A DNA stretch of 61,992 nt, counting the filler, from Candidatus Desantisbacteria bacterium CG1_02_49_89 (lineage in GTDB: Bacteria > Desantisbacteria > UBA1551), in NCBI GenBank assembly GCA_001871075.1. It is 7 parts of 7 records of this genome, joined end to end, with 100 filler letters (N's around TTAATTAATTAA, not from the genome) between each part and the next. Parts side by side here need not be neighbours in the genome. Positions count along the whole stretch, not along the records: positions 39,411 to 49,858 come from MNUP01000074.1; 6 more parts are not named here. One strand, 5' to 3'. Shown piece by piece: positions 4,988 to 61,992 of the stretch. The notes under the pieces are model-generated. The model made no database searches and was not told the origin of the DNA. It saw only the letters and a list, made by a program, of their open reading frames with translations. Positions within the stretch are counted from its first letter, which is position 1. Every line of letters starts with the position of its first letter. A program made the position numbers and the translations under genes.

Positions 4988-5283
4988 CTTAAATACCTTT
5001 TTTACCACGAAAGCACTCCGCCCGTCTTTCAGCGGGCGAGACTTCGCCCACCTAAAAGGATGGGCGAGGAAATCACGAAAAAATACATTTTGTCACTGAA
5101 GGCACTGAACACACTGAGGAAGATGTGTAATATCAGGGCTGAAGCCCTGAGTTACCCCGAAGGGGTCCCTTTGGGACAATAATATCCCTTGCCCTTGCTC
5201 TGACACTTTGACACGCTGATACGTTGACACGTTGATACGCCTTAAACGGTGGACAATCGACCGTGGACTGTGGACTAGAGAGG

Positions 5284-7005: not shown

Positions 7006-7163
7006 TGTTCCTCTTAACTGCGTCGAACGTCGTGCGTCTTACGTCGTGCGTATAAATTCTTAAACGTATGACGTACGACATACGACTTACGACGGTATCT
7101 ACGCACGACCTACGACGTATGACGGTATTTACGCACGACTTACGACGTATGACATACGACGGC

Positions 7164-8401: not shown

Positions 8402-9343
8402 TTAAGGAGCAGGCTCAACAGGCACAATTTCTTTCGTAAGGTCGACGATCTCATACGCCATTGCAAGGTCCCGATCAATTTCTGTTTTCTCCGGGATGAA
8501 CCTGGCGAATTTAACCAGGTCGCTTTGGTCAAGCAGTTCTTTCAGCATGCCGCAATGCCTGCGCTCAATGCCTTTTACCCGCATTTCCTGGTAAAGCTCG
8601 GTTGTGGTGCGTTCGGTCGCAAAGACCGAATACCTTTCCTCGATGTAAAGGCGCATTATCTCGGACAGGACGATGTAATATTTTTTTATCTTTCCCCGCA
8701 GCACAAGGTCCATCTCTTCAAGTTTTTTCAGCCTTTCAATTGCGATCTCGTGAGCCGGCCTTGCCAAAGGTTTCTGGGCAGGGAATACAGGTTCACCCTT
8801 CCTTCTCTTCCAGAGGATCCAGAATATTACCAGGCCTGCGGCTATCGCGAGGACGTAAAAGAGCAGGTAGCTCTTTATTGAAAGGGGAGGTTTTATGTCC
8901 CTGATGTCAGCGCCGGCTGTTTCGCCTTTCAGCACGCTTTCAACCAGTATCGGTATCGTGTCCGTTGAGGCAGTCGACGTGTTCCCAGCCAGGTCTTTAT
9001 AGGCAACGAGCAGGGAAGGTATCGCGTAAGAGCCCACGCTGAAAACAGTTATCGTGTACCTGAACTCGGTTATTTCCTTACCGCCTCTCTTTCTGGGTTT
9101 TTCCTGCCGCAGGTCTTTTACCTCGAATATCTCAGAGGCAGGGGACGGGTTGAATGCCGCAAGCTCAGCGCCCGCGGGTTTCTCGACAATAACCGTGTAG
9201 ACGATCCTGTCCCCGACAGTTATCTTCGACCTGTCCACCCGCGACTTTACAGTTACCGCCGCGCTTTCTGCATAAACGACGTGTAACGTGTCACGTGTCA
9301 CGTGTAACGTAAAAACCAGGAGTAAAAGCAATATCTTTTTCAT
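8402..9343 (-). CDS. Bat-operon membrane protein (BatD-like N-terminus, DIRDIK motif, TM helix)
   Basis: DIRDIKPP-TM-...ERTTTE...DLVKFA pattern typical of the gene between DUF58 and batA. Confidence 0.75.
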   Translation of the reverse strand: MKKILLLLLVFTLHVTRDTLHVVYAESAAVTVKSRVDRSKITVGDRIVYTVIVEKPAGAELAAFNPSPASEIFEVKDLRQEKPRKRGGKEITEFRYTITVFSVGSYAIPSLLVAYKDLAGNTSTASTDTIPILVESVLKGETAGADIRDIKPPLSIKSYLLFYVLAIAAGLVIFWILWKRRKGEPVFPAQKPLARPAHEIAIERLKKLEEMDLVLRGKIKKYYIVLSEIMRLYIEERYSVFATERTTTELYQEMRVKGIERRHCGMLKELLDQSDLVKFARFIPEKTEIDRDLAMAYEIVDLTKEIVPVEPAP

Positions 9344-11703: not shown

Positions 11704-11970
11704 TGTGCGGAAATAATCAAAAGTATACCTGGGGAACAATCAGAAGTATACCTATCTGGGGGAAATTGATTTAGGCTGGCTGGTTTAAAAATCAGGTAAT
11801 AATCACCCTCTCCTTTATCCTCTCCCCTCGAGGGAGAGGGGTAGGGTGAGGGGGGTGGGTACTCTCGAAGGCAGAATCTGGAAGGTAGGTCGATTTCCGG
11901 AGCAAGAAGTAACCGTGTGTCTTATCCCCAACAAAAAGATTATTGTGTTAAAAGATGAGCAGAAAATCGG
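11704..11970 (+). mobile_element. Left part of a TGT-ended MITE, truncated by contig end
   Basis: End TGTGCGGAAATAATCAAAAGTATAC with a second AAGTATAC 23 bp later. Interior 11812-11970 is homologous to the reverse complement of 49700-49858. Confidence 0.7.
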
Positions 11971-12070
11971 NNNNNNNNNNNNNNNNNNNNNNNNNNNNNN
12001 NNNNNNNNNNNNNNTTAATTAATTAANNNNNNNNNNNNNNNNNNNNNNNNNNNNNNNNNNNNNNNNNNNN
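11971..12070. other. Artificial contig linker; also at 22976-23075, 32886-32985, 39311-39410, 49859-49958, 55996-56095
   Basis: Identical 100-bp N blocks with a central six-frame stop cassette TTAATTAATTAA. Confidence 0.98.
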
Positions 12071-21200: not shown

Positions 21201-21604
21201 TCCATATTTCCAAGGATAGCTCAGGCATAAACGGAGGGTGCGAGCTCACAGGCGGGACTGTCGGGAATATAAGGGACAAGGTAGGCGGCACGCATCCGGG
21301 CCAGAAGATAGACGAAAGCAAAAAAGGCCAGTGGGTGCACAGGAAGAACGACCTGACAGACGTGGCAGGCCAGACGTTCCAATATACCACGATCGCGGTG
21401 GACGGCAACGATCACAAGGCAGGCACGTACATCGCTTATTATAAGAACATCTATATTACTGACGGAAAGGACAAGATATTTTTAAAGCTCTACAACAACG
21501 AGAATGCCATTCCATGCGGGGAAGCAAGTGTCGCGCCCAACGGCGGTGTGAAGGAAATGACCAATTTTGCAGTTGAAGTTGTCCCGGCCGCCAACGTTAA
21601 ATAA
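18224..21604 (+). CDS. Large secreted protein of unknown function (possibly carbohydrate-active)
   Basis: 1126-aa ORF with SD and signal peptide; aromatic-rich; no motif recognised with certainty. Confidence 0.7.
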   Translation: MKKIILSAVLVLLLPIMALGGEVVTNGKVSVQSVDGKKGIAGFDIFVDGKLLCPVRLSSQEGIVAKNVKKDGSILVFSDLSGQGVTFGKGSFVKVEVKANHPYPEISFRLELDKFDEGAWGSVFGNSPFHFLIMKQENAEALHHRGWLVATPVLDPYPLKVGRQGIVCSKWSREWMWAPPFGACPIPVAALWSPKEKKYVGLDFTHARLTDHSDKYIASSYCWTSGPDKNFVTLVYPHAKGYVNAVRYPNNGDMIASHCELIYNLELPYWKDPNTFYFDYIWSRYKDLLPAGPVLNDLSYIPGDSQIRAFPMPGGVGLTYKVPANDGWESMFMEEGTIVPVGDVWTLPSIDYLYLMAGGKTDNAQITGIKNQLSYMESKAKKFKVEGDDCVFWEKPLEGPPKIKYAGDVTTLREVHGWSTAQTFLDVYRNEKNSMSEEQKKAYLEIIDGALNWTKYNICTRNDISDVPEAMFLIGQPGVSFCLSYYYTFRDTPERKKNAELAYEMARSLMLRYLTIFIADTDEEDNIEGTFLIEPNSGQPWTGAACANECCLIPTEMIDVYVATGDPLLKYFVQGMLERWSLMYQPILYPSIKKSKGKFTECYGLFDDCAIGGRGKRALYGSFSSYNQVAYPPGAAKARIVCGEKAAIVFNKDGVHTDISEYRSAKNGENFSFRVNSTLKEPFEIAVSYQWPYPNLMEKDIFIKRKGEIKKLSLEGDNPDYKKPAKRSFWCLQIFKVQDGDVIAVGKLDEKLPVLKSESIKTLTLNPKNYENEGFKIIDLAKTCNEAPSLNWDDNASYAPYFPGEHYCFKVPYYLVPAALNNGKICVSSGEIPVNLSVPYLCFFISEVKDSSKLTINYDDGSKEPVSFKGSYLAWQGWPSLFQCRTDMVAHKCGAKAVKSVTVENMWVWAVTVATPASGAAKVEWALQKISGIQKAEAEEKERDRKRQESLKTGFALCLKSDYAEAKSYEFTYMVVTDEEQEIPANSFLEYDIHISKDSSGINGGCELTGGTVGNIRDKVGGTHPGQKIDESKKGQWVHRKNDLTDVAGQTFQYTTIAVDGNDHKAGTYIAYYKNIYITDGKDKIFLKLYNNENAIPCGEASVAPNGGVKEMTNFAVEVVPAANVK

Positions 21605-21647: not shown

Positions 21648-22018
21648 GTAGCGGTCGGATTCATCCGACAGCTTGCAATTTGTAACTCAGGGCTTCAGCC
21701 CTGATGATGTTAGGATTCAATTCATTGAGCCCGAGTGTTTCGCCCGCCCCTTTGGGGCGAGGTCTCGCCCCGATGTGATATCGGGGCGGATAGGGCAAAC
21801 CTTTCCGAAGGTCCGCCAATTTTGTTGGGCGGAAGGCTTGCGAGCCTGCCCTGCTTTGCCCGCCTTTGTCCGCCAATTTTCTAAGGAGGAAATCTTTAAG
21901 GTGGGAACCTGCTGTGTCCGCCAAGTTTGTTAGGTGGAAGCGGAGCGAATGGTTTAGGGTAGCGGTCGCATTTATGCGACAATTCCCACTTTGGAAAAGG
22001 GGGATTAAGGGGGATTTT
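21648..22018 (+). repeat. Mosaic REP/micro-element cluster
   Basis: Several GTAG/GTAA palindromes, a twin-hairpin element, CCGCCAA...GG(C/A/T)GG inserts and a terminal CCC/GGG hairpin. Confidence 0.8.
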
Positions 22019-22775: not shown

Positions 22776-23075
22776 GGGCGGGCTTGCCCGCCCTTTGTCA
22801 TTGCGAGTTCCCGTTTGTCGGGACGAAGCAATCTCAATTTCCATTGAAAAATAAGAACCTTCGTTTCACTCAGAACCTTGTTTTTCGTTGGTGAAGTCGT
22901 GGGAATGTCAAAATAAGGAAAATAAAAAATAGGGGCTGTCCCTATTTTGTCACTCGCCCCTTAAGGGAGAGGTCCNNNNNNNNNNNNNNNNNNNNNNNNN
23001 NNNNNNNNNNNNNNNNNNNTTAATTAATTAANNNNNNNNNNNNNNNNNNNNNNNNNNNNNNNNNNNNNNNNNNNN

Positions 23076-24506: not shown

Positions 24507-24711
24507 ATTTTTCGCGTAGCGAAAAATCAGAGTCCCGATGTAACATCGGGACGGTCTATTTTCCATTTTCTATTTTCAGGCAGATAACTTCCAGTTTGAA
24601 ATCNNNNNNNNGGACGGTCTATTTTCCATTTTCTATTTTCAGGCAGATAACTTCCAGTTTGAAATCAACAGAGTCCCGATGTAACATCGGGACAAATAAC
24701 AGGAGGAAGAA

Positions 24712-29188: not shown

Positions 29189-29349
29189 ACCACGGAGGCA
29201 CGGAGACACAGAGAATTGCTTTAAATATATTCCTTGCTTTTGATTCATAACTCATAATTCATAATTTTGCCCTTTGGGCAACATTCTCGTGCTGTTTTAC
29301 CGAGTGTTTTCGAATTCCATAATTCTTAAATTAACATCGAGAGCAAACA

Positions 29350-30150
29350 GTGAAAAAGATAACTATATTCGGGTGTCCTTTTGACAGGACATCATCATGT
29401 AAAAAAGGTTCGCGTTTTGCCCCCCGTGAAATAAGGCGGATCATGAATGACGTTGAAGATTATTCGCCTTATTTTGACCGGGATCTGAGGGATATAAAGT
29501 TCCGGGATGACGGGGACCTTGATATTTCAAGAATGCCTATGGAAAAAGCGCTGCAGGTTATAGAAAGCAAGGCCAGGGATATTCTAAAGGAAGGGGGCCT
29601 GCCTTTCGCGCTGGGAGGAGAGCATACTGTCAGCGTGGGTGCCGTAAGGGCGCTTAAAAGCAGGCACGCGGACCTGAAGGTTATCTGCCTGGACGCGCAC
29701 TGCGACCTTAAGGATTCTTACTACGGCCAGAAAATGTGCCATGCGACAGCCTCAAGGCGGATGATGGACCTGGTCGGCGAGAGATCGCTTTTCATTTTCG
29801 GCGCAAGGTCAGGCGTAAGGGAGGAGTTTGAATTCGCAAGGAAAAGGAAAATGGCCTTTGATTTTTCCGCGGCACTGCTGGGGAAAGTCGTCAGATCTGT
29901 TTCCGGAAGTCCCGTGTATATTTCGGTTGACCTGGATGTTTTTGACCCGGGTGTTTTCCCCGGGACAGGCGTTGCCGAGCCGGGAGGCATAGGCCTGCCG
30001 GACTTCATCAAGGCACTAAAGCTTTTTTCGGATTTGAATATTGCGGGGATGGACGCGGTGGAACTCTCGCCTCCCTGCGACCCAAGCGAAGCTTCAACTT
30101 TTCTTGCCGCGACCGCTGTAAGGGAAATGCTGCTGATGGCAGGCAGCTGA
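29350..30150 (+). CDS. speB: Agmatinase
   Basis: GGEHTVS, DAHCDL, SVDLDVFDP, PGTGVAEPGG. Confidence 0.92.
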   Translation: MKKITIFGCPFDRTSSCKKGSRFAPREIRRIMNDVEDYSPYFDRDLRDIKFRDDGDLDISRMPMEKALQVIESKARDILKEGGLPFALGGEHTVSVGAVRALKSRHADLKVICLDAHCDLKDSYYGQKMCHATASRRMMDLVGERSLFIFGARSGVREEFEFARKRKMAFDFSAALLGKVVRSVSGSPVYISVDLDVFDPGVFPGTGVAEPGGIGLPDFIKALKLFSDLNIAGMDAVELSPPCDPSEASTFLAATAVREMLLMAGS

Positions 30151-30410
30151 TTACCTGAAAACAGTATCAAGAGTCAAGTATCAAGTTTAGCCTCAATTAT
30201 GAATTATGAGTTATGAATTATGAATCAACAGCATAGATTTTTATTGTCCCGAAGGGATCCCTTTGGGATAACTCAGGGCTTCAGCCCTGATGTATCTAAA
30301 CAGTGTTCACCTGTGTTCACCCGTGGTTTATTAAAGTAGCTTAAATAAACCTTTTAAAGAATAATAGCATCTAACTATATAGGAGCCGATTTCTTCTCGA
30401 AGGAGGTAAA

Positions 30411-32831: not shown

Positions 32832-32985
32832 AACAGTGTCAAAGTATCAGAGTATCGTAGGGCAAGCCTTTAGGCTTGCGATCAGNNNNNNNNNNNNNNN
32901 NNNNNNNNNNNNNNNNNNNNNNNNNNNNNTTAATTAATTAANNNNNNNNNNNNNNNNNNNNNNNNNNNNNNNNNNNNNNNNNNNN

Positions 32986-39310: not shown

Positions 39311-39410
39311 NNNNNNNNNNNNNNNNNNNNNNNNNNNNNNNNNNNNNNNNNNNNTTAATTAATTAANNNNNNNNNNNNNNNNNNNNNNNNNNNNNNNNNN
39401 NNNNNNNNNN

Positions 39411-39755
39411 CACGACTATCCTTCTTCTATATTCATTGTTCCTCGTATATCCGGTTGCATCAATAACCCTTCCTTCTATGCTGGTTGGCGGAGTGGTGAT
39501 ATTGACAACAAAGTGCCCGTCTCCGAGGGTTTCACTGAAAGTAACGGGTGAGAGCCCGCTGGTGCAGTTCAACCGCCAGATGCCGTAGTCCACTCCTGCC
39601 TCTGCAAGATTGGTCGCCACCTTGTCAAGCCTGCTCCTCTTGCCCAGCCTGTACTGGGTAGTCGTGGTGAGAATCAGAGCTGTGCTTATCATTGCGATCA
39701 GCACTATTATTATTAAACCTGTGATGAGGGCGACCCCTTTTTCGCCAAGTTTCAT
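39411..39755 (-). CDS. PilX-like minor pilin (3' truncated)
   Basis: EKG|VALI hydrophobic helix without E5; A.NLAEAGV motif. Confidence 0.8.
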
Positions 39756-39763
39756 ACAACCCC

Positions 39764-40363
39764 CTAATTGCGCTTGTTGCGCAGCCTGACTGACGTAGAT
39801 ATAATTCCTTTCTGGAATTTACCGAAGCTGGCATGCCTGCGTATCCTGAGCGTTACCGTGCATTCCGTAATAAGAGATGTTGTTTCGCTGTTATAGGAAA
39901 ATATCGGCCTGGGATCCTCTGAACTGTGGTTATCTATGTAGGTACAAAGGGTCCAAAGAGAATTGGTGTCATTACCGCTCACCTTATCGCCCCAGCCGCG
40001 CCTCCTGCTTCCAGTTCCTTTTACCAGCCTCATTTTCAACTTCGCGGGATTTACTCCTGTATCCACAAAATACGTTATCGTATCACACCAGTAAATGGGA
40101 ATGCTGCCGTAGGTGTCCATATTGGGCAGAGACATCACCAGGGTATTCGGCGATGCGTATAACACGGCCTTTGCTTCTTTTATGTCTATGGTCATTTCCT
40201 GAATGACCGCCCTTAGATCCTGGTTTACCTTGGACTGCGTGTCTATCCATGAATATTGCCGATAGCTGAAGTTTATAAAAGTATACGCTCCCACAAGGAT
40301 TATGGAAAGGACCGCGAAAACTATCATCATTTCAAGTAAACTCATGCCTTTTTGGTCTGACAT
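39764..40363 (-). CDS. PilW/PulJ-like prepilin
   Basis: QKG|MSLLEMMIVFAV prepilin cleavage motif. Confidence 0.82.
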   Translation of the reverse strand: MSDQKGMSLLEMMIVFAVLSIILVGAYTFINFSYRQYSWIDTQSKVNQDLRAVIQEMTIDIKEAKAVLYASPNTLVMSLPNMDTYGSIPIYWCDTITYFVDTGVNPAKLKMRLVKGTGSRRRGWGDKVSGNDTNSLWTLCTYIDNHSSEDPRPIFSYNSETTSLITECTVTLRIRRHASFGKFQKGIISTSVRLRNKRN

Positions 40364-40377
40364 AGCTGCTTTCCTTG

Positions 40378-40773
40378 TCAGGGATTTATCCCCTGCCGTG
40401 TAATATATGTGACTATCGTATCGTGCATTATTATGTCGCTGGACCACTTTTTCCAGGACATATTTATAACAACCAGCTTCAGCCATCCCGAATCGGGGTC
40501 GACTTCAGTAATGGTCACAGTCCCTGCCGCATCCCGCAACTCCGGTTCGTTGGCCGTGAAAGTTTCGTTTGTTATAAGATAAAAACTCTCATCCCGTATG
40601 CTTTCCATTTTTTTATGCATTATCTCCGTTGCTATATCGTTCTCTTTCCCTCTCTGCCCGACAATGCCGCTCTGTTTCATCAGCTCCCCCACGCTCCAGA
40701 GCGCTATTGTAACAATAAGTATAGTCATCATAAGTTCTACCAAAGACATACCGCTTGAACTGTTTTTTTGCAT
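40378..40773 (-). CDS. PilV/PulI-like prepilin
   Basis: SG|MSLVELMMTILIV; SD GAGGAG. Confidence 0.82.
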   Translation of the reverse strand: MQKNSSSGMSLVELMMTILIVTIALWSVGELMKQSGIVGQRGKENDIATEIMHKKMESIRDESFYLITNETFTANEPELRDAAGTVTITEVDPDSGWLKLVVINMSWKKWSSDIIMHDTIVTYITRQGINP

Positions 40774-40857: not shown

Positions 40858-40972
40858 CTTTAGGCGGCCTGGCAACCCACCCCCTGTCTGTTCCGATCTT
40901 ATATCGTAGCAAGGGGGATTGGATCCATAACTTTGCGAGCCTCGGTTTCCCGGGGTTTGCTCTTTTCTAAAC
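40858..40972 (-). ncRNA. GEMM-I cyclic dinucleotide riboswitch (A20 variant)
   Basis: TTTAG-AAAAG-AGCAAACC-CCGG-GAAA-CCGA-GG-CTC-GCAAAG...GGATCCAA...GGTTGCCAGGCCGC-CTAAA; lies in the 5' UTR of the pilin genes. Confidence 0.75.
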
Positions 40973-41149: not shown

Positions 41150-41632
41150 CTACAGCTCTTCTATCCGATACATCATGGAACCGGAAAATGAATACTCCTT
41201 GAAAGTATTAACCAATCTTTTTCTGACAGGATTATTAAATATGTATTTCGCGGTCTCAAGCAGCTCTTCTTCTTTTCTGAGGATATGGTCATAGTAACTT
41301 AAATGCCATAACTTTTTCTTAAATTGCCTGATAAACATAAAACCGCTTTTTTGCTTAAAATCCTTTATAACCCTTTTAAGATCTGATTTTGGGGATTTGC
41401 TTAAAAGCAACAAATGGAGATGGTCCGGCATAAAACAATAAGCAGCAATATTGAAATCGGGCAGAATGGTTTCTCCTAAAATTGATAAAACTTTATTCAC
41501 CGCCTCAAAAGAAGTAAAAACTTCTTGTCTTTTGCAGGTCAAAATAGTAATAAAATAAGCATGGGTTCCTTTATAATCAAATCCTTTGAGCCGGGGACGT
41601 TTTGGAAAAGGTTCAACGTGTTTTAGAGGCAT
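41150..41632 (-). CDS. REP-associated tyrosine transposase (RAYT, Y1 HUH), copy 1
   Basis: RLKGFDY..YFITILT, YCFMPDHLHLL (HUH), LW..SYYDHILR, YIFNNPVRK; flanked by REPs. Confidence 0.92.
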   Translation of the reverse strand: MPLKHVEPFPKRPRLKGFDYKGTHAYFITILTCKRQEVFTSFEAVNKVLSILGETILPDFNIAAYCFMPDHLHLLLLSKSPKSDLKRVIKDFKQKSGFMFIRQFKKKLWHLSYYDHILRKEEELLETAKYIFNNPVRKRLVNTFKEYSFSGSMMYRIEEL

Positions 41633-41641
41633 AGTATTTAA

Positions 41642-41814
41642 TCAGACCTGAAGGTCTGAGTTACGGTCAAACCTAAAGGTTTGAGTTACGATCAGACCTG
41701 AAGGTCTGAGTTACGGTCAAACCTAAAGGTTTGAGTTACGATCAGACCTGAAGGTCTGAGTTACGGTCAAACCTAAAGGTTTGAGTTACGGTCAAACCTG
41801 AAGGTCTGAGTTAC
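41642..41814 (-). repeat. Seven tandem REPs at 25-bp period, two alternating variants
   Basis: TCAGACCTGAAGGTCTGAGTTAC alternates with TCAAACCTAAAGGTTTGAGTTAC; the last unit is a hybrid. Confidence 0.93.
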
Positions 41815-41835
41815 GCACGACGCACGACTAATGAA

Positions 41836-42997: not shown

Positions 42998-43179
42998 TCA
43001 AACCTGAAGGTTTGAGTTACGTAACTCAGGGCTTTAGCCCTGATATTTCTCAAACCTTCCTCCTTTAAGATTGGCGGATCTTCGAAAAGGTTTGAGTTAC
43101 GTAACTCAGGGCTTTAGCCCTGATGGTTTCAGGCCTCCCTCCTTAAAGATTGGCGGATCTTCGAGAAGACCTGAGTTAC
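42998..43179. repeat. BIME-like cluster of inverted GTAA-REPs, two carrying loop insertions
   Basis: TCAAACC..GGTTTGAGTTAC / GTAACTCAGGGCTTTAGCCCTGA pairs. Confidence 0.88.
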
Positions 43180-43658
43180 AGCTTGTCTATTTGAAACATC
43201 ATGGAACCGGAAAATGGATATTCTTTAAATGAATTAACTAATCCTTTTCTGACAGGATTATTAAATATGTATTTCGCGGTCTCAAGCAGCTCTTCTTCTT
43301 TTCTGAGGATATGGTCATAATAACTTATATGCCATAACTTTTTCTTAAATTGCCTGATAAACATAAAACCGCTTTTTTGATTAAAATCCTTTATAACCCT
43401 TTTAAGATCTGATTTTGGGGATTTGCTTAAAAGCAACAAATGGAGATGGTCCGGCATAAAACAATAAGCAGCAATATTAAAATCCTGAAGGATAGTTTCT
43501 TTCAGAATAGATAAGACATTATTTACTGTTTCGGGTGAGATAAAAATTTCTTTTCTTTCATGTGTTAAAATAGTAATAAAATAAGCATGGGTTCCCGTAT
43601 AATCAAATCCTTTAAGACGCGGACGTTTAGGAAAAGGTTTATCGTGTTTTAGAGGCAT
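43176..43658 (-). CDS. REP-associated tyrosine transposase (RAYT), copy 2
   Basis: Paralog of 41150-41632 with the same motifs. Confidence 0.92.
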   Translation of the reverse strand: MPLKHDKPFPKRPRLKGFDYTGTHAYFITILTHERKEIFISPETVNNVLSILKETILQDFNIAAYCFMPDHLHLLLLSKSPKSDLKRVIKDFNQKSGFMFIRQFKKKLWHISYYDHILRKEEELLETAKYIFNNPVRKGLVNSFKEYPFSGSMMFQIDKL

Positions 43659-43667
43659 ATTATTTAG

Positions 43668-43924
43668 TCAAACCTGAAGGTTTGAGTTACGGAGACTGCG
43701 TAACTCAGGGCTAAAGCCCTGAAGTTTTCAAACCTGAAGGTTTGAGTTACGGAGACTGCGTAACTCAGGGCTAAAGCCCTGAAGTTTTCAAACCTGAAGG
43801 TTTGAGTTACGTATACTGCGTAACTCAGGGCTAAAGCCCTGAAGTTTTCAAACCTGAAGGTTTGAGTTACGTATCAGGGCTCCCTCCATAATGACTGGCG
43901 GGTCTTCGAAAAGCCCTGAGTTAC
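43668..43924. repeat. BIME-like array with 60-bp period (3 full units plus partial)
   Basis: TCAAACCTGAAGGTTTGAGTTAC-N9-GTAACTCAGGGCTAAAGCCCTGA-AGTTT repeated. Confidence 0.93.
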
Positions 43925-44985
43925 ATAATTTTGCTTATGATCGCGTCACCCATTTCCTTTGTGCCGACCGCGGAGGGGTCGTCGGGATCAGGCTTGAAAT
44001 CGTAGGTGAGATATTTTCCCTCCTCGATCACCCCGGCGACCGCGGTTTCAAGCTTACTTGCCGCTTCCTTCTCGCCCAGGTACTCAAGCATCATTGCCCC
44101 TGACAGGACAAGCGCCGCGGGGTCAACTTTATTCATGCCTTTGTATTTAGGGGCGCTGCCGTGTATTGCCTCGAAAATAGCCCCGTTCTCGCCGAAGTTC
44201 GCGCCTGGCGCGACTCCCAGCCCTCCCACAAGGCCCGCGCACAGATCGGAAATTATATCACCGTAAAGATTGGGCAGGAGAAGCACGTCGTACTGGACCG
44301 GCTTCTGCACTAATTGCATGCACATATTATCCACGAGGCGCTCTTCAAACAGGATACCGGGATATTTCTTCGCGACTTCCCTTGATACTTCAAGAAAGAG
44401 CCCGTCGGTGAATTTCATTATGTTCGCCTTCGTGACAGCGGTAACTTTTTTACGCCCGTTTTTGCGCGCGTATTCAAACGCAAATCTTGCGATGCGCTCC
44501 GTCCCTGTGCGGGATATCGGTTTTACAGAAATATTGGCGTCAGGGAATATTTTACCTTCAGCCCACTGGATGATCTCCTTCGCCTCTTTTGAGCCGGCGG
44601 CGAATTCAACGCCCGCGTACAGGTCTTCCGTGTTCTCCCTGATCACAACAAGGTCTATGTCCCTGAACAGCGACTTTACTCCCTTGTATGTCCTGCAGGG
44701 ACGCACGCAGGCGTAAAGGTTGAACAGCTTGCGCAGTTCAACGTTAACGCTCCTGAAACCTTTTCCTACGGGAGTGGTTATAGGTCCCTTAAGCGCCACT
44801 TTATTCTTTGTTATGGATTGCAGCAGGGTTTCCGGCAGGAGCGTGCCGTACTTTTTAAGGGCTTCCTCACCGGCCTGGTGAACATCCCAGTTGATCTGCA
44901 CCCCGGTGGCTTCTATGCACTTCCTTGCTACGTCGGTGACTTCCGGCCCGACCCCGTCCCCCGGGATCAATGTGATATTATACAT
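43921..44985 (-). CDS. Isocitrate/isopropylmalate dehydrogenase family (IDH-like)
   Basis: [59 protein letters not shown]. Confidence 0.9.
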
Positions 44986-45080: not shown

Positions 45081-45572
45081 TTAAAAACTTCCGTGTTTTC
45101 GCAGATAGTTCGCAAGGCCGCCGGCGTTGAATATCCTGAGCATTATTTCTGGCAGCGGGTGCGCCCGCAGAATAACATTCCTCGTTTTATCAAAGATGAT
45201 CCCTTTTTTCAGGTCTATCTCAAGCGCGTCGCCCTGTTTTATTTTATCCGTTTCGCACTCAAGCAGCGGAAGGCCGATATTGACGGCGTTCCGAAAAAAA
45301 ATGCGCGCGAAGGATTTCGCGAGCACCGCTCCCACCCCCGCGTGTTTTACCGCGAGCGGGGCCTGTTCCCTCGAGGAACCGCACCCGAAATTGGAACCGG
45401 CGACCATAAAATCTCCCGGTTTCAGGTTTTTATAGAAATCCGGGCAAATGTCCTCCATTATGTGCTTTGCGAGCTCCTTCAGATCCAGGGTCTTGAACTT
45501 GTATTTCCCCGATATGATGTAATCCGTGTTTATGTCGTCCCCGAACTTGTGCGCTCGCCCTTTCAACAACAT
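45081..45572 (-). CDS. LeuD/HacB-type dehydratase small subunit
   Basis: GDDINTDYII, NFGCGSSREQA, SFARIFFRNAVNIG. Confidence 0.92.
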   Translation of the reverse strand: MLLKGRAHKFGDDINTDYIISGKYKFKTLDLKELAKHIMEDICPDFYKNLKPGDFMVAGSNFGCGSSREQAPLAVKHAGVGAVLAKSFARIFFRNAVNIGLPLLECETDKIKQGDALEIDLKKGIIFDKTRNVILRAHPLPEIMLRIFNAGGLANYLRKHGSF

Positions 45573-45865
45573 TACAGCTCCTTGTGCAGATGCAAACGGA
45601 TTAGAAGATCAGATTCATACAGATAAATCAGACCTGAAGGTCTGAGTTACAAATAGGACTTAATAAATCTCGCCCTTACTCCTAAAACACGCAAACCTTC
45701 CTCCACCAAGATTGGCGGATCTACGAAAAGGTTTGCCCTATCCGCCCCGACGTCCATCGGGGCGAAACCTCGCCCCAAAGGGGCGGGCGATAAAATTCCT
45801 TGCTGTTGCGTTGACACGTTGATACGCTGATACGCTGACACGTTTTTGAACTGGCTGCGCATCCA

Positions 45866-47470
45866 TCATTTCTGGATCGTGATCTCGACGCGGCGGTTCT
45901 TCGCCCTGCCTTCCTCTGTCGTGTTGGGTGCCGCGGGATTCTTGTCTCCGTAGCCTTTCCTGACAAGCCTTTCGCCGGGTATGCCCAGTTTGACAAAATA
46001 TTCCGCGACGCTCTCAGCCCTTGCCTGTGAAAGCTCCAGGTTGTTCTTATATTTTGATTTAAGCCTGCTGCTTATCGGCACGTTGTCAGTGTGCCCGTCG
46101 ATCCTGACAACGGTATTGGGATAAACGCCAAGGGCTTTTGCTATCTGTTCAAGAGTGCCGTAGCTTTCCTTTACTATTTCCGGGCTTCCGGAAGCGAACT
46201 GTATGGCGGTTTCCGTCGCAACGATTATGATCTTCTCCCTGTCTTCCTTTAAGGTTATCCCGCGCAGTTTCTTTAATTCATCCATGGCGTTGCGCTGCGC
46301 TTCCTCAAGCCTGCGCTTTTCTTCCTCAAGCCGCCTTTTTTCGTCTTCAAGCCTCTGCCTGTCCTCTTCCCACTTTTTCTTCTCGCTTTCAAACTTGCCC
46401 TTCTCGGCAAGCAGCCTTTCCATCTCGTCCTTTATGCGCCTTTCCTCCTCAAACCTTGTGCGCTCCTGTTTTTCCCACTTATACGCGTCCCCGAACAGGA
46501 AAGAAAGCGAAACCCACAGCCCGCCGCTCAGGTACTTGCTGGAAGTATGATATGGGATCACGACCGCGCAGTCGAGCTTCCAGTCTGTTTTTTCAACGCG
46601 GTTTGACTTTATGCCGCCGCCGAACGCGAACGTGAAATCGCCGTTGTCGCCGAACTTCATGCCGGCCCTCACGCCGACCAGGTTATCCTTCATCGCCTTT
46701 TTAAGCTCTTCGGTCTGTTTCAGCCAGGCTTCTCCCCCGAGGCTGAACTTGAACCCGTCTGACCTGGCTATGAAATCCGCGGAACCCGTTATGTCGTTGA
46801 ATATATTGAACTCATTTATCCTGTAGGTCAGGCCGCCCCTGAATCCCATTGCTCCCGCTCCTATGTCAATGAACGCGAGGGCAAAGCTCAGCCTTTCCAT
46901 TTTCGGTATATTGTCAAAATATATGGCTATGTCCGCGTTTATTCCCTGCGGGAACCTGTCGGTGAAAAACCTGCTGTCGCAGGCATTCGAGATCGTAGCC
47001 GTGTTGTCCGGATACTCCTTTGAACACATCTTGACCGTTAAACCGATAGAGGAATAAAAGTTCAGGAGCCTGCTGTAAGAAACACCCAGGGTATTTTCCC
47101 TGTACCTGCTGGAAATATCTACGCCCCTGCCCATGTATCCGATGCCAAGGTGCCCGAGGTTCTGTATGGGATGGACGTAACTGAAAAAGCCGTAAAGGCT
47201 TTCTCCGGATTCGACGGGATTATCCGAATTATGTGAAAACGAGGCGCCGGTGATCATGATCTCCGGCCTTTTGAGTTTTACAAGGCCCGCGGAGTTGAAA
47301 AAAATCGCGCTTGCGTCGTCTGACACGCCCATAAAAGCGCCGCCCATGCCCATAGCGCGCGCGCCGAAGCTGAAATCTTCGAAAGACGCGTAACAAACGT
47401 GTAACGTGTCACGTGTAACGTGTAAGGCAAGCAGTAATAAAAGAATTGATAAGATTTTTTTATATTTCAT
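45866..47470 (-). CDS. Outer-membrane barrel (PorV/FadL-like N-terminus) + coiled coil + OmpA C-terminal domain
   Basis: GARAMGMGGAF..DDASAIFFN; IDGHTDN, LSQARAESV, GRAKNRRVEI. Confidence 0.85.
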   Translation of the reverse strand: MKYKKILSILLLLLALHVTRDTLHVCYASFEDFSFGARAMGMGGAFMGVSDDASAIFFNSAGLVKLKRPEIMITGASFSHNSDNPVESGESLYGFFSYVHPIQNLGHLGIGYMGRGVDISSRYRENTLGVSYSRLLNFYSSIGLTVKMCSKEYPDNTATISNACDSRFFTDRFPQGINADIAIYFDNIPKMERLSFALAFIDIGAGAMGFRGGLTYRINEFNIFNDITGSADFIARSDGFKFSLGGEAWLKQTEELKKAMKDNLVGVRAGMKFGDNGDFTFAFGGGIKSNRVEKTDWKLDCAVVIPYHTSSKYLSGGLWVSLSFLFGDAYKWEKQERTRFEEERRIKDEMERLLAEKGKFESEKKKWEEDRQRLEDEKRRLEEEKRRLEEAQRNAMDELKKLRGITLKEDREKIIIVATETAIQFASGSPEIVKESYGTLEQIAKALGVYPNTVVRIDGHTDNVPISSRLKSKYKNNLELSQARAESVAEYFVKLGIPGERLVRKGYGDKNPAAPNTTEEGRAKNRRVEITIQK

Positions 47471-47837
47471 TGTTCCTCCCTCTGAAAACACTTATCAATT
47501 TACCAAGCATACTGCATATCCTGACACATTTTTCCCTTAATGAATCATGTTTTTCAACATCTATCTCATGCTGTTTAAGACATAAAGTAAGCATCGGGAT
47601 GCATTCTCTTGCCGAGTTAATAGCAAAGCCGTAAAATTGTATTTTTTCCTTGGGGGTTGCTTTACCGCTTCCTTCGGCAATATTGTTGGTTATCGACAGC
47701 GATGCTCTTCTCAGCTGGTCGCTAACTGAAAACTGGATATCGCGGGATGCCTTCTTCAGGATGGTAAAAATCTCATCTACAAATTCAAGCGCCAGTTGAT
47801 ATACCTCAAGTCTTTCAAAATCAAATTCGTATTTCAT
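47460..47837 (-). CDS. Four-helix-bundle protein (23S rRNA-IVP / Avd-like family)
   Basis: FERLEVYQLA, DQLRRASLSITNNIAEG, AINSAREC. Confidence 0.92.
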   Translation of the reverse strand: MKYEFDFERLEVYQLALEFVDEIFTILKKASRDIQFSVSDQLRRASLSITNNIAEGSGKATPKEKIQFYGFAINSARECIPMLTLCLKQHEIDVEKHDSLREKCVRICSMLGKLISVFRGRNNEI

Positions 47838-47875
47838 AGGTTTTCGAATTCCGCATTTCCTATTTTCTTCTTTTC

Positions 47876-47961
47876 CGTTACACGTTACACGTTTTGCATT
47901 TCCCGTTACACGTTACACGTTTTGCATTTCCCGTTACACGTTACACGTGACACGTTACACG
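47876..47961. repeat. Heptamer array (CGTTACA)n with 28-bp higher-order period; inverse array at 47398-47425
   Basis: Read directly; the two arrays are reverse complements bracketing the four-helix-bundle gene. Confidence 0.9.
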
Positions 47962-47965
47962 GTAT

Positions 47966-49366
47966 TTAAAGGAAGCTCCTCGGGTCCGTTATCCTGCCGG
48001 TGACGGCCGACGCTGCGGCAGTCGCCGGGGAAGAAAGATAAATGAACGCTCTGGGATTCGCCATCCTGCCCTTGAAATTGCGGTTTGCCGTGGAGAGAAC
48101 GACCTCCCCGTCCGCCGGAATGCCCTGGTGAGTTCCAACGCAGGGGCCGCATCCGGGATTAAGGACCGCGCCTCCCGACTTTACAAAGGCCTCGATGATC
48201 CCCTCTTTGAGGGCCCGCAAGAAGATCCCGCGCGATGCCGGAACGATAATAAGCTTAAGCTTCGGGTGTATTTTTCTATTCCTGAGGATCGCGGCCGCGA
48301 TCTTCAGGTCCTCAAATCTGCCGTTGGTACAGGTCCCTATGACAACCTGGTCTATTTTTGTCCCTTCAACACTGCCCAAAGGAACAACATTATCCACGGT
48401 ATGCGGTTTCGCTATCATCGGCCCTATCTTGCCCGCGTCAAACGTCAGTATCTTTTCGTATCTCGCATCTGCATCTGCTTTTACACCAGCAAGCCTACCC
48501 GCCCTGCACAAGGGCAGGGCGAGGTCTCGCCCCGACGTCCATCGGGGCGGAAAGGCTTGCCCTGCATTCTGCGCAGGCTGAAGCCTGCGGCTACCGTTGA
48601 CACGTTGACACGTTGCCTGCCCGCCAACGCTTTTTGGGTGGGACACGTTGACACGGTTTTTGTTCAGCCATGCCGCCGTTTTGCCGTCCGCTTCCATCAG
48701 GCCCGCCTTGGCTCCCATTTCAACAGCCATATTAGAAACGGTCAGCCTTGAATCAACGCTCAGAGAACTAATGGCAGAACCCGCGAATTCCACTGCCCGG
48801 TAGTTTGCGCCGTCCGCGCCGATCTTGCCTATGAGATAAAGGATCAGGTCCTTGCCAAACACTCCTTTTTTCAGCCTGCCGTTCATGACTATTTTTATTG
48901 TTTCGGGAATTTTCAGCCATATCCTGCCCGATATCATAGCGGCAGCAAGGTCAGTTGAACCGACGCCTGTCGAGAAGGCATTCAGCGCACCGTATGTGGT
49001 TGTGTGGGAATCAGCCCCTATGACCAGCATTCCGGGCAGAACGTTGTCTTCAGCCATGACCTGGTGGCATACGCCGCAGCCCACGTCATAAAGTTTGATC
49101 TTATGCCTGAGCGCGAACTCCCTCATCATGATATGCAGCCTTGAAACATCAATGCTGGGCGACGGGCTGTTGTGGTCAATGACCATGGCTATCCTGCCGG
49201 GGGAAAAAACTTTCTTTCCGCGCATTTCCTCAAACGCCTTTATGGCAAGCGGCGAAGTCCCATCCTGGCCCATAAGGAAATCCACCCTGCACACGGCTAT
49301 CCGGCCGGCAGAAACATCTATTCCCGAATGAGCACCCAATATTTTTTCCGCGATCGTCTTTCCCAT
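47966..49366 (-). CDS. LeuC/HacA-type dehydratase large subunit with ~55-aa repeat-derived insertion
   Basis: GKTIAEKIL, GADSHTTT, IGTCTNGR, GCGPCVG, STANRNFKGRM. Confidence 0.92.
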   Translation of the reverse strand: MGKTIAEKILGAHSGIDVSAGRIAVCRVDFLMGQDGTSPLAIKAFEEMRGKKVFSPGRIAMVIDHNSPSPSIDVSRLHIMMREFALRHKIKLYDVGCGVCHQVMAEDNVLPGMLVIGADSHTTTYGALNAFSTGVGSTDLAAAMISGRIWLKIPETIKIVMNGRLKKGVFGKDLILYLIGKIGADGANYRAVEFAGSAISSLSVDSRLTVSNMAVEMGAKAGLMEADGKTAAWLNKNRVNVSHPKSVGGQATCQRVNGSRRLQPAQNAGQAFPPRWTSGRDLALPLCRAGRLAGVKADADARYEKILTFDAGKIGPMIAKPHTVDNVVPLGSVEGTKIDQVVIGTCTNGRFEDLKIAAAILRNRKIHPKLKLIIVPASRGIFLRALKEGIIEAFVKSGGAVLNPGCGPCVGTHQGIPADGEVVLSTANRNFKGRMANPRAFIYLSSPATAAASAVTGRITDPRSFL

Positions 49367-49587
49367 TTTAAATGCAGTCATTTGTCATTAGTCATTAGTC
49401 ATTTGTCATTAGTAAAATCTAAATATTATCTAACGCTTTCCAACGATTCTCAACGATTTTATCGGAATGTAGTGGCAGACCTTGGTTTGCTTTATGTCGA
49501 GCAAGCTCGACCACTACAATAATCTGGCTTCATGCGGCAGGAATTAATGTCACGGGGTAGCAGTCCTATCATAAATTTCTTAAATAT

Positions 49588-49858: not shown

Positions 49859-50059
49859 NNNNNNNNNNNNNNNNNNNNNNNNNNNNNNNNNNNNNNNNNN
49901 NNTTAATTAATTAANNNNNNNNNNNNNNNNNNNNNNNNNNNNNNNNNNNNNNNNNNNNGAGTGAAAAAAGTTAATTATTTAAATAAAATCCCGTCTTCTC
50001 AATCTCTCAATCTTAAATCTTACAATCTTACAATTTATTTTATTGCCTCGCCGCCCGGA

Positions 50060-51269: not shown

Positions 51270-51383
51270 TATCTCCTCACAAGTATCGTTAATATTTAGT
51301 CAAGGTAAATTGGTTCATGTCGCAGTTGTCGGTTGTCGGTTGAGGGTTGTCTGTAAACTCACAACTGACAACTCACAACTGCT

Positions 51384-55983: not shown

Positions 55984-56095
55984 ACTGCGACCTCANNNNN
56001 NNNNNNNNNNNNNNNNNNNNNNNNNNNNNNNNNNNNNNNTTAATTAATTAANNNNNNNNNNNNNNNNNNNNNNNNNNNNNNNNNNNNNNNNNNNN

Positions 56096-56259: not shown

Positions 56260-59200
56260 ATGGAGCACTGCGGGTTTGTGCATCTGCACACGCATACGGA
56301 ATACAGTCTTCTTGACGGTGCCTGCAAGATAGAGGCGTTGATGAAAAGGGCGAGTGAATTTAAGATGCCGGCGCTTGCGATCACCGATCACGGCAACCTT
56401 TTCGGAGCCATAGAGTTTTACCAGGCGGGATTGAAATACGGGGTCAAACCGGTGATAGGCTGCGAAATGTATATGGCGCCCGGAAGCAGGCACGAAAAGG
56501 CAGTCGACGCTGCAACCGGGGAAACCGCGCACCACCTGACAGTCCTTGTAAAAAACGAGAAGGGGTATAAGAATTTAATTAAGCTGATAAACCTGAGTTA
56601 TGCCGAAGGTTTCTATTACAAGCCCAGGATCGACCGGGAGATCCTTTTTTCTCACGCCGAAGGCCTGGTTATCCTTTCCGGATGCCTGAAAGGCGAGATA
56701 TCAAACCTTCTGCTGAAGGGCAGGATCGACGATGTAAGGAAAACGATAGGGGAATTCAGGGATAAGTTCGGCAAAGACTATTACATAGAAATACAGGACA
56801 ACGGGCTTACCGAGCAAAAAACCGTGCTGAAGCATCTCCTGGAACTGAGCAGGGATTTCTCGGTTCCGCCGGTCGCTACCAGCGACATACACTACCTGAA
56901 AAAGGAAGACAGCTATTCGCATGAAGTGCTCCTTTGCATACAGACCGTCACAAGCATGAACGACCCAAACAGGCTCAGGTTCTCAACACCTGAATTTTAT
57001 TTCAGGAGCGCCGAGGAAATGAAGGAAGTTTTTAAAGAATGCCCGGAAGCCATAACCAACACGGTGGCTGTCGCGGAATCCTGTAACCTTGCCTTTGATT
57101 TTTCGAAAACCTATCTTCCGCCTTATAATATACCGCAGGGTTATAAAGATGCGGACGATTATCTTGGGCACCTGTGCATGGACGGCCTGAAAAAAAGGTA
57201 CGGGGAAGTAACCGCAGAGATCGGATCAAGGGCAAAGAAAGAACTCGAAATAATTAAAACCACCGGTTTTGCCGGTTATTTTCTCATAGTTTGGGATTTC
57301 GTAAAATACGCGAAAGAGAACGGCATTTTTGTGGGCCCGGGAAGAGGGTCGGCTGTGGGCAGTATTGTTGTTTATTCCCTGGGTATCACCAACCTGGACC
57401 CGATTGAATACGGCCTGATCTTTGAAAGGTTCCTGAACCCGGAAAGGGTGAGCCCTCCGGACATAGACATGGATTTCGGCGACGACAGGAGGGACGAAGT
57501 CGTCCGGTATATCATCAACAGGTTCGGGGCGGATAAGGTTTCGCAGATCATAACCTTCGGCACAATGAAGCCGCGCCTTGCCATAAGGGATGTGGCAAGG
57601 GCGCTGGACATACCGCTTAACGAGGTAGACAAGTTGGCGAAGCTGATCCCTCTTGACGCGCCCAGCATTGAGGAAGCCCTGGAAAAAACGCCGGAACTCA
57701 GGAATATGGTCGATGGGGACAGCAGGTACGGGGAGCTCATCAAACTATCGTCAAAACTGCAGGGTCTGGTGCGCCACGCGGGGACACATGCCGCAGGCCT
57801 GGTCATCACACCGGAGAGCCTTGACAATTACACTCCTTTCTACAGGGACAGCAAGGGGCAGATAGCGACTCAGTATGACATGAATTACCTGGGTAAACTC
57901 GGGCTGATAAAGATAGATATACTCGGGTTGCGGAACCTGACGATCATAAAAGACGCTCTCGCGCTGATCAAGCAGAACAGGGGGGAGGATATAGGCATAG
58001 ACAGGATTCCGCTTGACGACCCCCGCACTTACAGACTGCTGCAGGATGCGAAGACCCTGGGAGTGTTCCAGATCGAATCCAGCGGTTTCCGGAGCCTGCT
58101 AAAGAAGTTCAAGATAGAAAAGTTCGATGACCTGATCGCCATACTTTCGCTGCACAGGCCCGGGCCGCTTGAGAGCGGCATGGTGGATGATTACATAAAC
58201 CGCAAGTACGGAAAGACTCCGATAGACTACATGCACCCTATGCTTGAAGATGTGCTTAAGGAAACATACGGCGTGATCGTTTACCAGGAGCAGGTAATGA
58301 AGATCGCGAACATCCTGGCGAACTTCAGCCTCGGTAAAGCTGACATTCTCCGAAAGGCCATGGGAAAAAAGATACCCGAGGAGATGGAAAGACAGCGCGA
58401 AGAGTTCGTGAAAGGGGCAAAGTCGAACAAAATATCAGAGGAAAAATCTAATAAGATCTTTAACCTTATTGCCAAATTCGCGGGATACGGCTTCAATAAA
58501 TCGCATTCAGCCGCGTATTCCCTTATTTCCTACCAGACTGCTTTTTTAAAGGCGAATTATCCGCTTGAATACATGACAAGCCTGCTGTCGAACGAAATGG
58601 GCAACACGGACAAGCTTGTAAAATATATCAACGAGACCAAGAACATGGGAATGGAATTGCTGCCCCCGGATTTGCAAAAAAGCGTGTTCAGGTTCGCGAC
58701 AGAAGGGGGCTCCGTGCGTTTCGGGCTGGGAGCGGTAAAAAATGTGGGAGAAGGAGCGGTTGAATCGATAGTGGGCGCAAGGCGTGAAGGAGGCATTTTT
58801 AAATCTCTTACTGATTTCTGTTCACGAGTGGATACAAGGCTCGTTAACAAAAAGGTCATAGAAAGCCTGGTCAAGTGCGGTGCTTTCGATCCCCTTGGGC
58901 TTTCAAGGGCAAGGCTTGTGGCTGAGATCGAGCCTGCCATGGGCGTGGGAGCGCGGGTGCAGAACGACAGGGTAAAAGGCCAGTATTCCCTGTTTGGGGA
59001 AGAGCCTTCATCTTCAGCTAACCCCGCCCCGACGTTACATCGGGGCGAGGTCTCGCCCGCCGCAGAGGCGGGCGGACAATCGTTTAATAATTCATCAGAA
59101 GAGGAGTGGAACGAGTCCAAGACGCTCGCCTGCGAAAAAGAGGTGCTTGGTTTTTACGTGAGCAGTCATCCTCTTGCGGATTACGAAGAGCAGATAAAAA

Positions 59201-61704: not shown

Positions 61705-61811
61705 TAAAAGCGTGTCAACGTGTCAGCGTGTCAGCGTGTCCCGCCCCGATTTATCATCGGGGCGAGGCTCGCCCAGTTTTAACTGGGCGGCAGCGTGTCA
61801 GAGTAAAAGAA

Positions 61812-61992
61812 ATGAGCAATAATAAAGGATACAAGAAGCTCAAAATATGGGAAAGAGCTCATGTCCTGGCAACAGAAGTTTATAAAGTCACAATGGGTTT
61901 TCCGAAAGAGGAATTATACGGCATTACATCTCAGATCAGGCGGGCTGCTTTTTCAGTCCCCCTCAATATAACAGAAGGGCAGGCAATCAGCA
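61812..61992 (+). CDS. Second four-helix-bundle (IVP/Avd-like) protein, 3' truncated
   Basis: MSNNKGYKKLKIWERAH...FPKEELYGITSQIRRAAFSVPLNITEG; preceded by a (CGTGTCAR)n array. Confidence 0.9.
   Translation, partial: MSNNKGYKKLKIWERAHVLATEVYKVTMGFPKEELYGITSQIRRAAFSVPLNITEGQAIS

Follow-up and report, generated by a model that had tools for sequence, protein, structure and literature searches.

The DNA analysed here (the window) is a stretch of 61,992 nucleotides joined from seven parts of the genome of Candidatus Desantisbacteria bacterium CG1_02_49_89 (assembly GCA_001871075.1). One of these parts carries a leucine operon in which a small gene of the IVP/S23p four-helix-bundle family is enclosed by two inverted arrays of tandem heptamers. 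The gene together with its arrays is called the cassette below, and the arrays are referred to as its 5' and 3' arms. All genes of the locus are on the minus strand, in the order leuC, cassette, ompA-like, leuD, leuB (Table 1). The 5' arm array lies 5 nt past the leuC stop codon, and its distal 28 nt (47934-47961) are the exact partner of the 3' arm. On the other side of the cassette the ATG of the OmpA-like gene overlaps the end of the IVP gene by 11 nt. The OmpA-like protein consists of a barrel-like N-terminus, a coiled coil and an OmpA domain at the C-terminus. A search of the window for rRNA found none; the flanks of the cassette are leuC and the OmpA-like gene. Near the end of the window there is a second IVP gene, preceded by an octamer array, (AGCGTGTC)x4 at 61709-61740, two GC-rich hairpins and one further unit. 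Scanning the window with the hidden Markov model of the family revealed no IVP remnants beyond these two genes.

Table 1. Genes and repeat features of the cassette locus, and related features elsewhere in the window (strand - is the coding strand of the leucine operon)
Feature	Position	Strand	Remarks
leuC-like gene (3-isopropylmalate dehydratase large subunit, aconitase family)	47966..49381	-	Pfam PF00330, E 2e-98; upstream neighbour of the cassette
5' arm region	47876..47961	-	heptamer array (TGTAACG on the coding strand), 28-nt higher-order repeat
Spacer between 5' arm and IVP start codon	47838..47875	-	contains GGAATTCGAAA (47842-47852)
IVP/S23p four-helix-bundle gene	47460..47837	-	PF05635, 125 aa; hairpin loop
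3' arm	47398..47425	-	heptamer array, reverse complement of 47934-47961; inside OmpA-like signal-peptide codons
OmpA-like outer-membrane protein gene	45866..47470	-	PF00691, E 3.5e-21
Spacer with GC-rich hairpins and octamers	between OmpA-like and leuD-like genes		
leuD-like gene	45081..45572	-	
leuB-like gene	43921..44985	-	
Second IVP gene	61709..61991	+	upstream array included; ATG 61812; cut by the window end
Signal-peptide heptamer arrays	2966-2995, 4922-4952, 9279-9310, 47396-47425		

Tandem Repeats Finder (TRF) described the arrays as (AACGTGT)x4.3 at 47396-47425 and (CGTTACA)x12.3 at 47876-47961, the latter with a higher-order unit of 28 nt present 2.8 times. In a repeat search the inverted arms extended over 35 nt (47391-47425 and 47934-47968) and were 91% complementary. 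Their 28-nt core (47398-47425 on the plus, 47934-47961 on the minus strand) contained no mismatch, the position of the variant unit TGTCACG included; the expected number of such exact matches was 0.00 (100 shuffles). When the RNA of the coding strand was folded, the arms paired around the open reading frame (ORF) with z = -5.85, and none of 20 shuffled sequences was equally stable. The arrays themselves were the sole direct repeats found at the locus by the repeat search. The original prediction, made from the sequence alone, had described inverted heptamer arrays bracketing the 125-aa gene, an upstream arm adjoining the leuC-like stop, a downstream arm coding for the peptide LHVTRDTLHV of an OmpA-like protein whose ATG overlaps the bundle gene, and an array preceding the second bundle gene. 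All these features proved to be real.

A third copy of the arm, with 1 mismatch in 28, was found at 9280..9307 (minus strand). There is no IVP gene beside it; it forms signal-peptide codons of a BatD-like gene (8402..9343, minus strand) and encodes the same peptide LHVTRDTLHV. A sequence just 5' of the IVP gene had also been reported to recur at 11458 and 29308. Exact copies of GGAATTCGAAA were indeed present at 11458 (plus), 29308 (minus) and 47842 (minus), three copies against 0.13 expected, a number reached in none of 100 shuffles. The copies at 11458 and 29308 are part of a different small repeat of ~60-90 nt, and with one mismatch allowed the count was not above chance.

The 125-aa IVP protein matched PF05635 with 95.5 bits (cut-off 33.8) and TIGR02436 with 89.4 bits (cut-off 24). 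PF05635 was its only match; no nuclease, recombinase, transposase or other catalytic domain was detected. Among solved structures it matched 2gsc (E 7e-7 over residues 7-121) and 2rld (E 0.0056), entries with five chains each, and judged by this similarity it is a relative of these pentameric four-helix bundles. The Avd proteins of diversity-generating retroelements (DGRs), which we take to be a related four-helix-bundle fold family, are presumably likewise basic and oligomeric. IVP proteins of the loci described below were mostly basic (median pI 9.2; pI above 9 in 31 of 48); the window IVP has a pI of 7.65. The family motif GxxRxxxSxxxNxxE is quoted in the accessible part of PMC3936711; the window sequence RASLSITNNIAE fits RxxxSxxxNxxE, with the leading G replaced by Q.

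The generality of the arms was assessed with a flank score: the 300 nt on either side of a gene were compared with each other, and the highest-scoring ungapped complementary match (+1/-2) was recorded, a score of at least 12 being taken to indicate inverted arms. Set 1 comprised the window gene and 23 of 24 PF05635 matches from four genomes retrieved via their leuC loci (the omitted match, L104, holds the other half of the L101 gene). Set 2 contained the best PF05635 match from each of 29 genomes of one phylum, in which the family is present in 98 of 151 sampled genomes; 27 of these loci had both flanks of at least 150 nt. Inverted scores of at least 12 were obtained for 16/24 genes of set 1 and 24/27 genes of set 2, and direct repeats with such scores for a single gene in each set. 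Pooling the IVP genes with both flanks of at least 150 nt gave 37 of 48 with inverted arms. Control genes from the set 1 loci and the window reached the threshold in 8 of 127 cases (direct repeats 9/127), neighbour genes in IVP loci in 1 of 62 (direct 5/62), and non-cognate arm pairs within one genome in 3 of 150.

In set 2 the end of the upstream arm was 3-106 nt away from the ATG, and the downstream arm began anywhere from 20 nt ahead of the stop codon to 93 nt beyond it. Among the clearly periodic flanks, 21 of 24 upstream and 24 of 26 downstream ones had a period of 7. The rule also held in genomes poor in arrays at random places: such arrays numbered 9 in 139.8 kb of IVP-rich and 1 in 167.8 kb of IVP-free genomes, contributed by 4 of 10 and 1 of 10 genomes, respectively, a difference in the expected direction that rests on few genomes. 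A protein search of a plasmid collection yielded seven records, six of which were examined. All five cyanobacterial IVP genes among them (two from Nostoc, two from Calothrix and one from Geminocystis) had inverted heptamer arms with scores of 17-27, for example (GGGGTGT)n ... (ACACCCT)n; the sixth is described below. None of the 53 IVP loci from the genome searches was inside rRNA. Inverted arms are thus both general in this gene family and specific to it, and they are the rule in several bacterial phyla.

Each cassette has its own unit: arms differ between cassettes and are complementary within each of them. Arm similarity followed the identity of the IVP proteins, as anticipated in the original prediction. 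When the upstream flanks of two cassettes were compared, scores of at least 12 were found in 9 of 25 pairs with at least 60% IVP identity, 17 of 107 pairs at 50-60%, 3 of 283 at 40-50% and 1 of 713 below 40%. Among related cassettes the cognate arms outscored non-cognate arms in 436 of 488 comparisons, and therefore complementarity is kept while the sequence of the arms drifts. These comparisons supported the view that arms and ORF are inherited together. The cassettes are old paralogues, mostly 30-60% identical, and they are scattered: among pairs of related cassettes (at least 50% identity) 144 of 150 had no common flanking ORF, and 6 shared any.

The cassettes are inserted in the sense orientation of their surroundings, the upstream neighbour being co-oriented in 46 of 50 and the downstream neighbour in 43 of 48 cases. 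The spacers to the neighbours are short (medians 52 nt upstream, 44 nt downstream) and largely filled by the arms, which therefore leave little room for a promoter of the cassette's own. Sense-strand stop codons in all three frames were present in 16 of 37 5' arms and in 3 of 37 3' arms; the rarity of stops in the 3' arms fits their tolerance in coding starts. In the window leuC and leuD are 2393 nt apart. Elsewhere leuD followed leuC within 200 nt at 60 of 75 loci, and no IVP gene was found between the two genes in 80 other loci fetched. The gap was ~1 kb in ten other loci; in the one examined (L065) an IVP gene was considered as the filler and rejected, the ORF there reading as a PilT-like ATPase.

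Arms also occur without an ORF. Cassette L100 of genome G001 has the unit TGTGTYA, for which 58 matches at ~35 places were found in that genome, the reversed-pattern control having none. At least five of these places are small ORF-less hairpins consisting of inverted array pairs around a loop of 13-28 nt; the intergenic hairpins L252, L253, L255 and L258 read (TGTGTYA)3-5, loop, (TRACACA)3-5. In three the loop is tgattgtccRaca or a one-base variant, and L255 has it in the reverse orientation. The unit of a second cassette of this genome was found at ~10 places, and that of a third was restricted to its own contig. ORF-less array hairpins are also present in the window (51322-51382 and 7021-7161). 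Intervening sequences (IVSs) of rRNA genes exist with and without an ORF, and the hairpins of G001 and the window mirror this duality.

Arrays are abundant throughout the window. TRF reported 89 rows in 62 kb; ~40 of the arrays have a period of 7 or 8, their units being diverse, and nearly all spacers contain an array; there are only two IVP genes. Inverted heptamer arrays at 29243-29266 and 30195-30225 bracket an agmatinase-like gene (speB, 29350-30150) with a score of 24, and in locus L067 inverted arrays (11315-11333 and 11862-11886) bracket leuD with a score of 22. Four exported proteins have a heptamer array directly after the hydrophobic core of the signal peptide (MKK..LLLLL). The arrays encode TFQLSALSF in the genes 2266-3135 and 3197-5008, and LHVTRDTLHV in the BatD-like and OmpA-like genes. 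The three genes other than the OmpA-like gene have no adjacent IVP gene, hence an arm within a signal peptide is a habit of this genome and not a mark of the cassette. In locus L086 the gene following the cassette has the unit of the cassette in its signal peptide.

The OmpA-like precursor reads MKYKKILSILLLLLA-LHVTRDTLHV-CYA|SFEDF, the arm encoding residues 16-25. The mature part of its orthologues starts at a conserved AFEDLS..GARAMGMGGAF. As judged from the orthologues, the protein requires a signal peptide here, and the 3' arm is therefore truly coding. At the same place the orthologues have LHLTPYTLHR (87% identity) and LHLTLFTFHF (48% identity), and the array-coded stretch is 10 residues long in both of them, too. 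The heptamer unit of the tract at codons 16-25 is not a multiple of 3. The suggestion that the cassette remodels the 5' ends of genes was not supported, as the feature is not specific to the cassette, given the three other exported proteins with arrays and no IVP gene, and the orthologues with repeat-like peptides.

The stretch was contained in 24 groundwater or aquifer sequencing runs, none of them recorded as RNA, and four of these runs were examined by contigs. In all four, contigs ran from the 3' arm across the IVP gene to the beginning of the 5' array and showed 0-1 differences. A contig of run X9 reached from the IVP gene over the entire 5' array and on into leuC, and one 28-nt array unit was missing from it. 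The length of the 3' arm, i.e. of the signal-peptide tract, was unchanged in the bridging contigs of the four runs, contigs being a form of data that drops rare variants. The cassette site was thus filled in 4/4 aquifer runs, and no empty-site joint with adequate sides was found in them. Joints skipping parts of the locus, at a likeness threshold of 85, were rejected as empty sites; their sides were 21-38 nt long and lay within arrays, and they were read as other array-bearing loci. In these four samples the cassette is fixed, and arrays change by whole units. Searches for orthologous sites found no LeuC match above 58% identity in genome contigs. In a metagenome scan with the OmpA-like alignment the matches listed included only distant relatives (at most 55% identity over short segments), and in the phylum of G001 (401 genomes) the matches were confined to the C-terminal OmpA domain. 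No target-site duplication was seen by eye at the arm ends, the borders of which are fuzzy.

The cassette was compared with the IVSs of 23S rRNA genes. According to the accessible text of PMC4990558, the IVS of Coxiella burnetii has a 28-bp stem of terminal inverted repeats around an S23p ORF, tandem heptamers (GACAGAT) precede the ORF in a strain-dependent copy number, and RNase III cuts at the first repeat. The same text cites the IVS of Leptospira (Ralph and McClelland 1993) and an earlier hypothesis of the IVS as a mobile element, with mobility as the role of its ORF. IVP ORFs in rRNA insertions of bacteria of the candidate phyla radiation are described in the accessible part of a preprint (10.1101/2024.02.27.582315). 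The sixth plasmid record mentioned above, an IVP copy on plasmid AZO_p2 of Azospirillum lipoferum 4B (L250), lies inside the large-subunit rRNA (RF02541, 2131.7 bits). Because it is within that gene, L250 is a true 23S rRNA IVS; its termini are heptamers (CAGAGGA/CGGATGA) that fold into an enclosing stem. The window cassette resembles these elements in that complementary termini form a long stem of about 25-28 bp with a sense-oriented PF05635 ORF in its loop, and in the tandem heptamers of these termini (Coxiella, Azospirillum). It differs from them in that it lies between protein-coding genes of an operon and not in a 23S rRNA helix, and in that the following gene includes one arm in its translated sequence. 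Excision by RNase III is known for Coxiella, whereas for the window cassette it would be expected by analogy. The original prediction of an undescribed system was too strong, since the anatomy is that of an ORF-bearing 23S rRNA IVS, for which the mobile-element hypothesis already existed. In a literature search, subscription journals and supplements aside, no statement was found that non-rRNA IVP genes carry inverted heptamer arrays.

Intergenic heptamer repeats are known from cyanobacteria as STRR (short tandemly repeated repetitive sequences). Similar repeats are TAACTGA in Beggiatoaceae, Cyanobacteria and Bacteroidetes (PMC4679880) and GGGAATC / GGGGAYT in Xanthomonas and Nostoc (PMC4692102). 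As described in the accessible texts, they share with the window arrays the short tandem 7-nt organization, the location in spacers near gene ends and the 7-nt length steps. They differ in that the window has many different units together, and neither of the two papers, supplements aside and within the text accessible, links the repeats to IVP genes or paired inverted arrays. Unlike a DGR, the window contains no reverse transcriptase among 47 ORFs scanned with Pfam, and no template/variable repeat pair was seen at the locus. Insertion sequences (ISs) and MITEs (miniature inverted-repeat transposable elements) resemble the cassette in their terminal inverted repeats, and the ORF-less hairpins of G001, which share arms with an ORF-bearing element, are a further likeness. 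The differences are that there is no transposase, that the tandem-heptamer arms vary by cassette, and that no target duplication was seen. The cassette is neither a DGR nor a classical IS or MITE; it has the anatomy of an rRNA IVS but not its rRNA location.

These results suggest that the cassette is probably, if far from certainly, an IVS-type hairpin lying in an operon, co-transcribed with it, cut by RNase III and moving as a unit over evolutionary time. By analogy with the rRNA elements, a cassette without room for its own promoter would be transcribed with the leucine operon. Its arms would pair in the RNA to form a stem of at least 28 bp, which RNase III would cut as it does in rRNA IVSs, releasing the IVP message and separating the flanking cistrons. 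At this locus the cut in the 3' arm would fall within codons 16-25 of the OmpA-like gene, and a full-length OmpA-like message would be possible only if the stem stayed unpaired or if there were a start within the cassette. The stem may repress the OmpA-like gene, or a start inside the cassette may bypass it. Arms and ORF would move or be transferred together rarely, as a whole unit, over evolutionary time. Of the transposase-less mobile cassette that had been proposed, the scattered sites, the co-inherited arms and ORF and the ORF-less hairpins speak for a mobile past; movement or excision at present has left no sign, the site being filled in 4/4 runs with no credible empty-site joint.

Several observations weigh against the IVS-type hairpin. 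RNase III processing is argued by analogy. The mismatches within arms (61 G.U versus 47 A.C, p = 0.21) showed no clear excess of G.U and do not separate pairing in the sense RNA from a role at the level of DNA. A stem in the RNA alone leaves the tandem-heptamer periodicity of 7 nt unexplained, and therefore explanations in which the IVP protein recognizes the arrays stay alive. Eleven of the 48 cassettes had scores below 12, and inverted arrays also bracket a few ordinary genes, namely the agmatinase-like gene of the window and leuD in L067. If the 3' arm were cut, the OmpA-like message would be lost, a difficulty for this explanation unless there is an internal start, and only weak consensus promoter matches were found in the cassette (47557-47528).

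One such explanation is a mobile element acting at the level of DNA, with the arrays as terminal inverted repeats, the IVP as specificity factor for its cognate arrays, host enzymes to cut and join, and the ORF-less array hairpins as MITE-like derivatives. It would account for the parallel between arm similarity and IVP identity, for related cassettes at unrelated sites (flanking ORF shared in 6/150 pairs), for the spread of the L100 unit in G001 and its at least five hairpins, some with a common loop, for the third arm copy at 9280, for the basic IVP proteins and for the absence of IVP from the 80 other leuC-leuD loci. It is nevertheless unlikely, as the family has no nuclease, recombinase or transposase domain, no target-site duplication was seen by eye at the fuzzy arm borders, the site is filled in 4/4 runs, the cassettes are old paralogues rather than recent copies, and one of the three G001 units is found only on its own contig. 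The bias for sense orientation would not be expected of a cut-and-paste element either, unless imposed by selection. If the module is instead regulatory and not selfish, the IVP would bind the arrays, or the RNA of the 5' arm would pair with complementary arrays in other messages; the arms would then serve autoregulation, and dispersed arrays of the same unit in 5' leaders and signal-peptide codons would make up a regulon. The 28-nt arm in the signal-peptide codons of the OmpA-like and BatD-like genes, complementary to the 5' arm of the cassette, would agree with this, as would the downstream gene of L086, the recurrence of two of the three G001 units at many places and, again, the basic proteins. 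Such a regulon is improbable, however, in view of the ~40 arrays of period 7 or 8 with many units next to only two IVP genes, and of IVP-rich genomes that are not clearly array-rich at random places.

It could also be argued that nothing special is present, ordinary arrays of a common unit flanking a small gene by chance and the signal-peptide tract being a site of phase variation. Phase-variable repeat tracts in signal peptides occur in the opa genes of Neisseria, and gain or loss of one heptamer would shift the frame. The 89 TRF rows, the arrays in nearly every spacer, the four exported proteins with arrays in their signal peptides and the 28-nt length variant of the upstream array in one of the four runs are all compatible with this idea. 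Yet the arms are identical over 28 nt down to the position of the variant unit, and the chance origin is already contradicted by the family-wide counts (37/48 versus 8/127 and 1/62), which extend to array-poor genomes and cyanobacteria. Phase variation is opposed, as far as contigs can show, by the constant length of the tract in the bridging contigs of the four runs, and also by the 10 array-coded residues in the 87% and 48% orthologues. This explanation is thus very improbable.

Other features were noted in the window. Two genes for REP-associated tyrosine transposases (RAYTs; REP, repetitive extragenic palindromic) at 41150-41632 and 43176-43658 flank a malic-enzyme gene. Pfam Y1_Tnp matches both, and the copy scanned matched NF047646 with 94.7 bits. 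Tandem arrays of palindromic REP-like units of 25, 50 and 60 nt lie beside them (41642-41815 and 43668-43871). The original statement that no recombinase was visible thus needs correction; no link was found between these two genes, which are 4-6 kb away and have REP arrays of their own, and the cassette. LeuC carries an in-frame insert of 48 aa (residues 252-299; 48485-48628), absent from the LeuC of L065 and composed of GC-rich hairpins and CGTTGACA octamers. The hairpin core GCCCCGA..TCGGGGC occurs five times in the window (0.00 expected), the other copies being at 45744-45763, 21767-21787, 59026-59046 and 61743-61763; one copy is inside the dnaE ORF (at about residue 922) and one precedes the second IVP gene. 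In the four metagenomes the contig depth at core sites was ~20-60x that of the flanks. The pattern suggests a palindromic element present in very many copies, which essential genes tolerate in-frame. The palindromic elements of Rickettsia (RPE) are in-frame as well, and the tolerance of repeats in coding regions, in signal peptides and in the LeuC insert, is a likeness to them.

A cyclic di-GMP-I riboswitch (40860-40971, minus strand; 46.4 bits, gathering score 35) lies upstream of pilin-like genes (39764-40486 and 39363-39755). A gene for a Type ISP restriction-modification enzyme (15093-18206) is located in a low-GC stretch (GC 0.31 at 16-18 kb) and is followed by an ORF of 1126 aa (18224-21604) with no Pfam or NCBIfam match. 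Six blocks of 100 nt (44 N, 12 nt, 44 N), all in spacers (11971-12070, 22976-23075, 32886-32985, 39311-39410, 49859-49958 and 55996-56095), are the filler joints between the parts of the window and not a genomic repeat; there is a further block of 8 N at 24604-24611.

PF05635/TIGR02436 is a large and widespread family with solved structures, for which we know of no function outside the Avd proteins of DGRs. Its members usually go under the names "four helix bundle" or "S23 ribosomal" and are treated as stray genes. A bolder and rather unlikely view is that IVP proteins are sequence-specific binders of heptamer arrays and that each cassette, through its private unit, is a hub for dispersed cognate arrays in ORF-less hairpins, 5' leaders and signal-peptide codons, which either the IVP or the arm RNA released by RNase III would process, regulate or mobilize. 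If true, a family orphaned since 1993 would acquire a function, and so would the unexplained intergenic heptamers of Beggiatoaceae (TAACTGA), Xanthomonas (GGGAATC) and cyanobacteria (STRR). The hairpin cassettes and their private heptamer arms provide one frame for the rRNA and non-rRNA copies of the gene. The rule that IVP genes come as cassettes warns against annotation through guilt by association, for example in cas loci, where IVP genes have been read as functional partners (PMC3936711, accessible part), and it links the PF05635 family to heptamer repeats that have long been unexplained.

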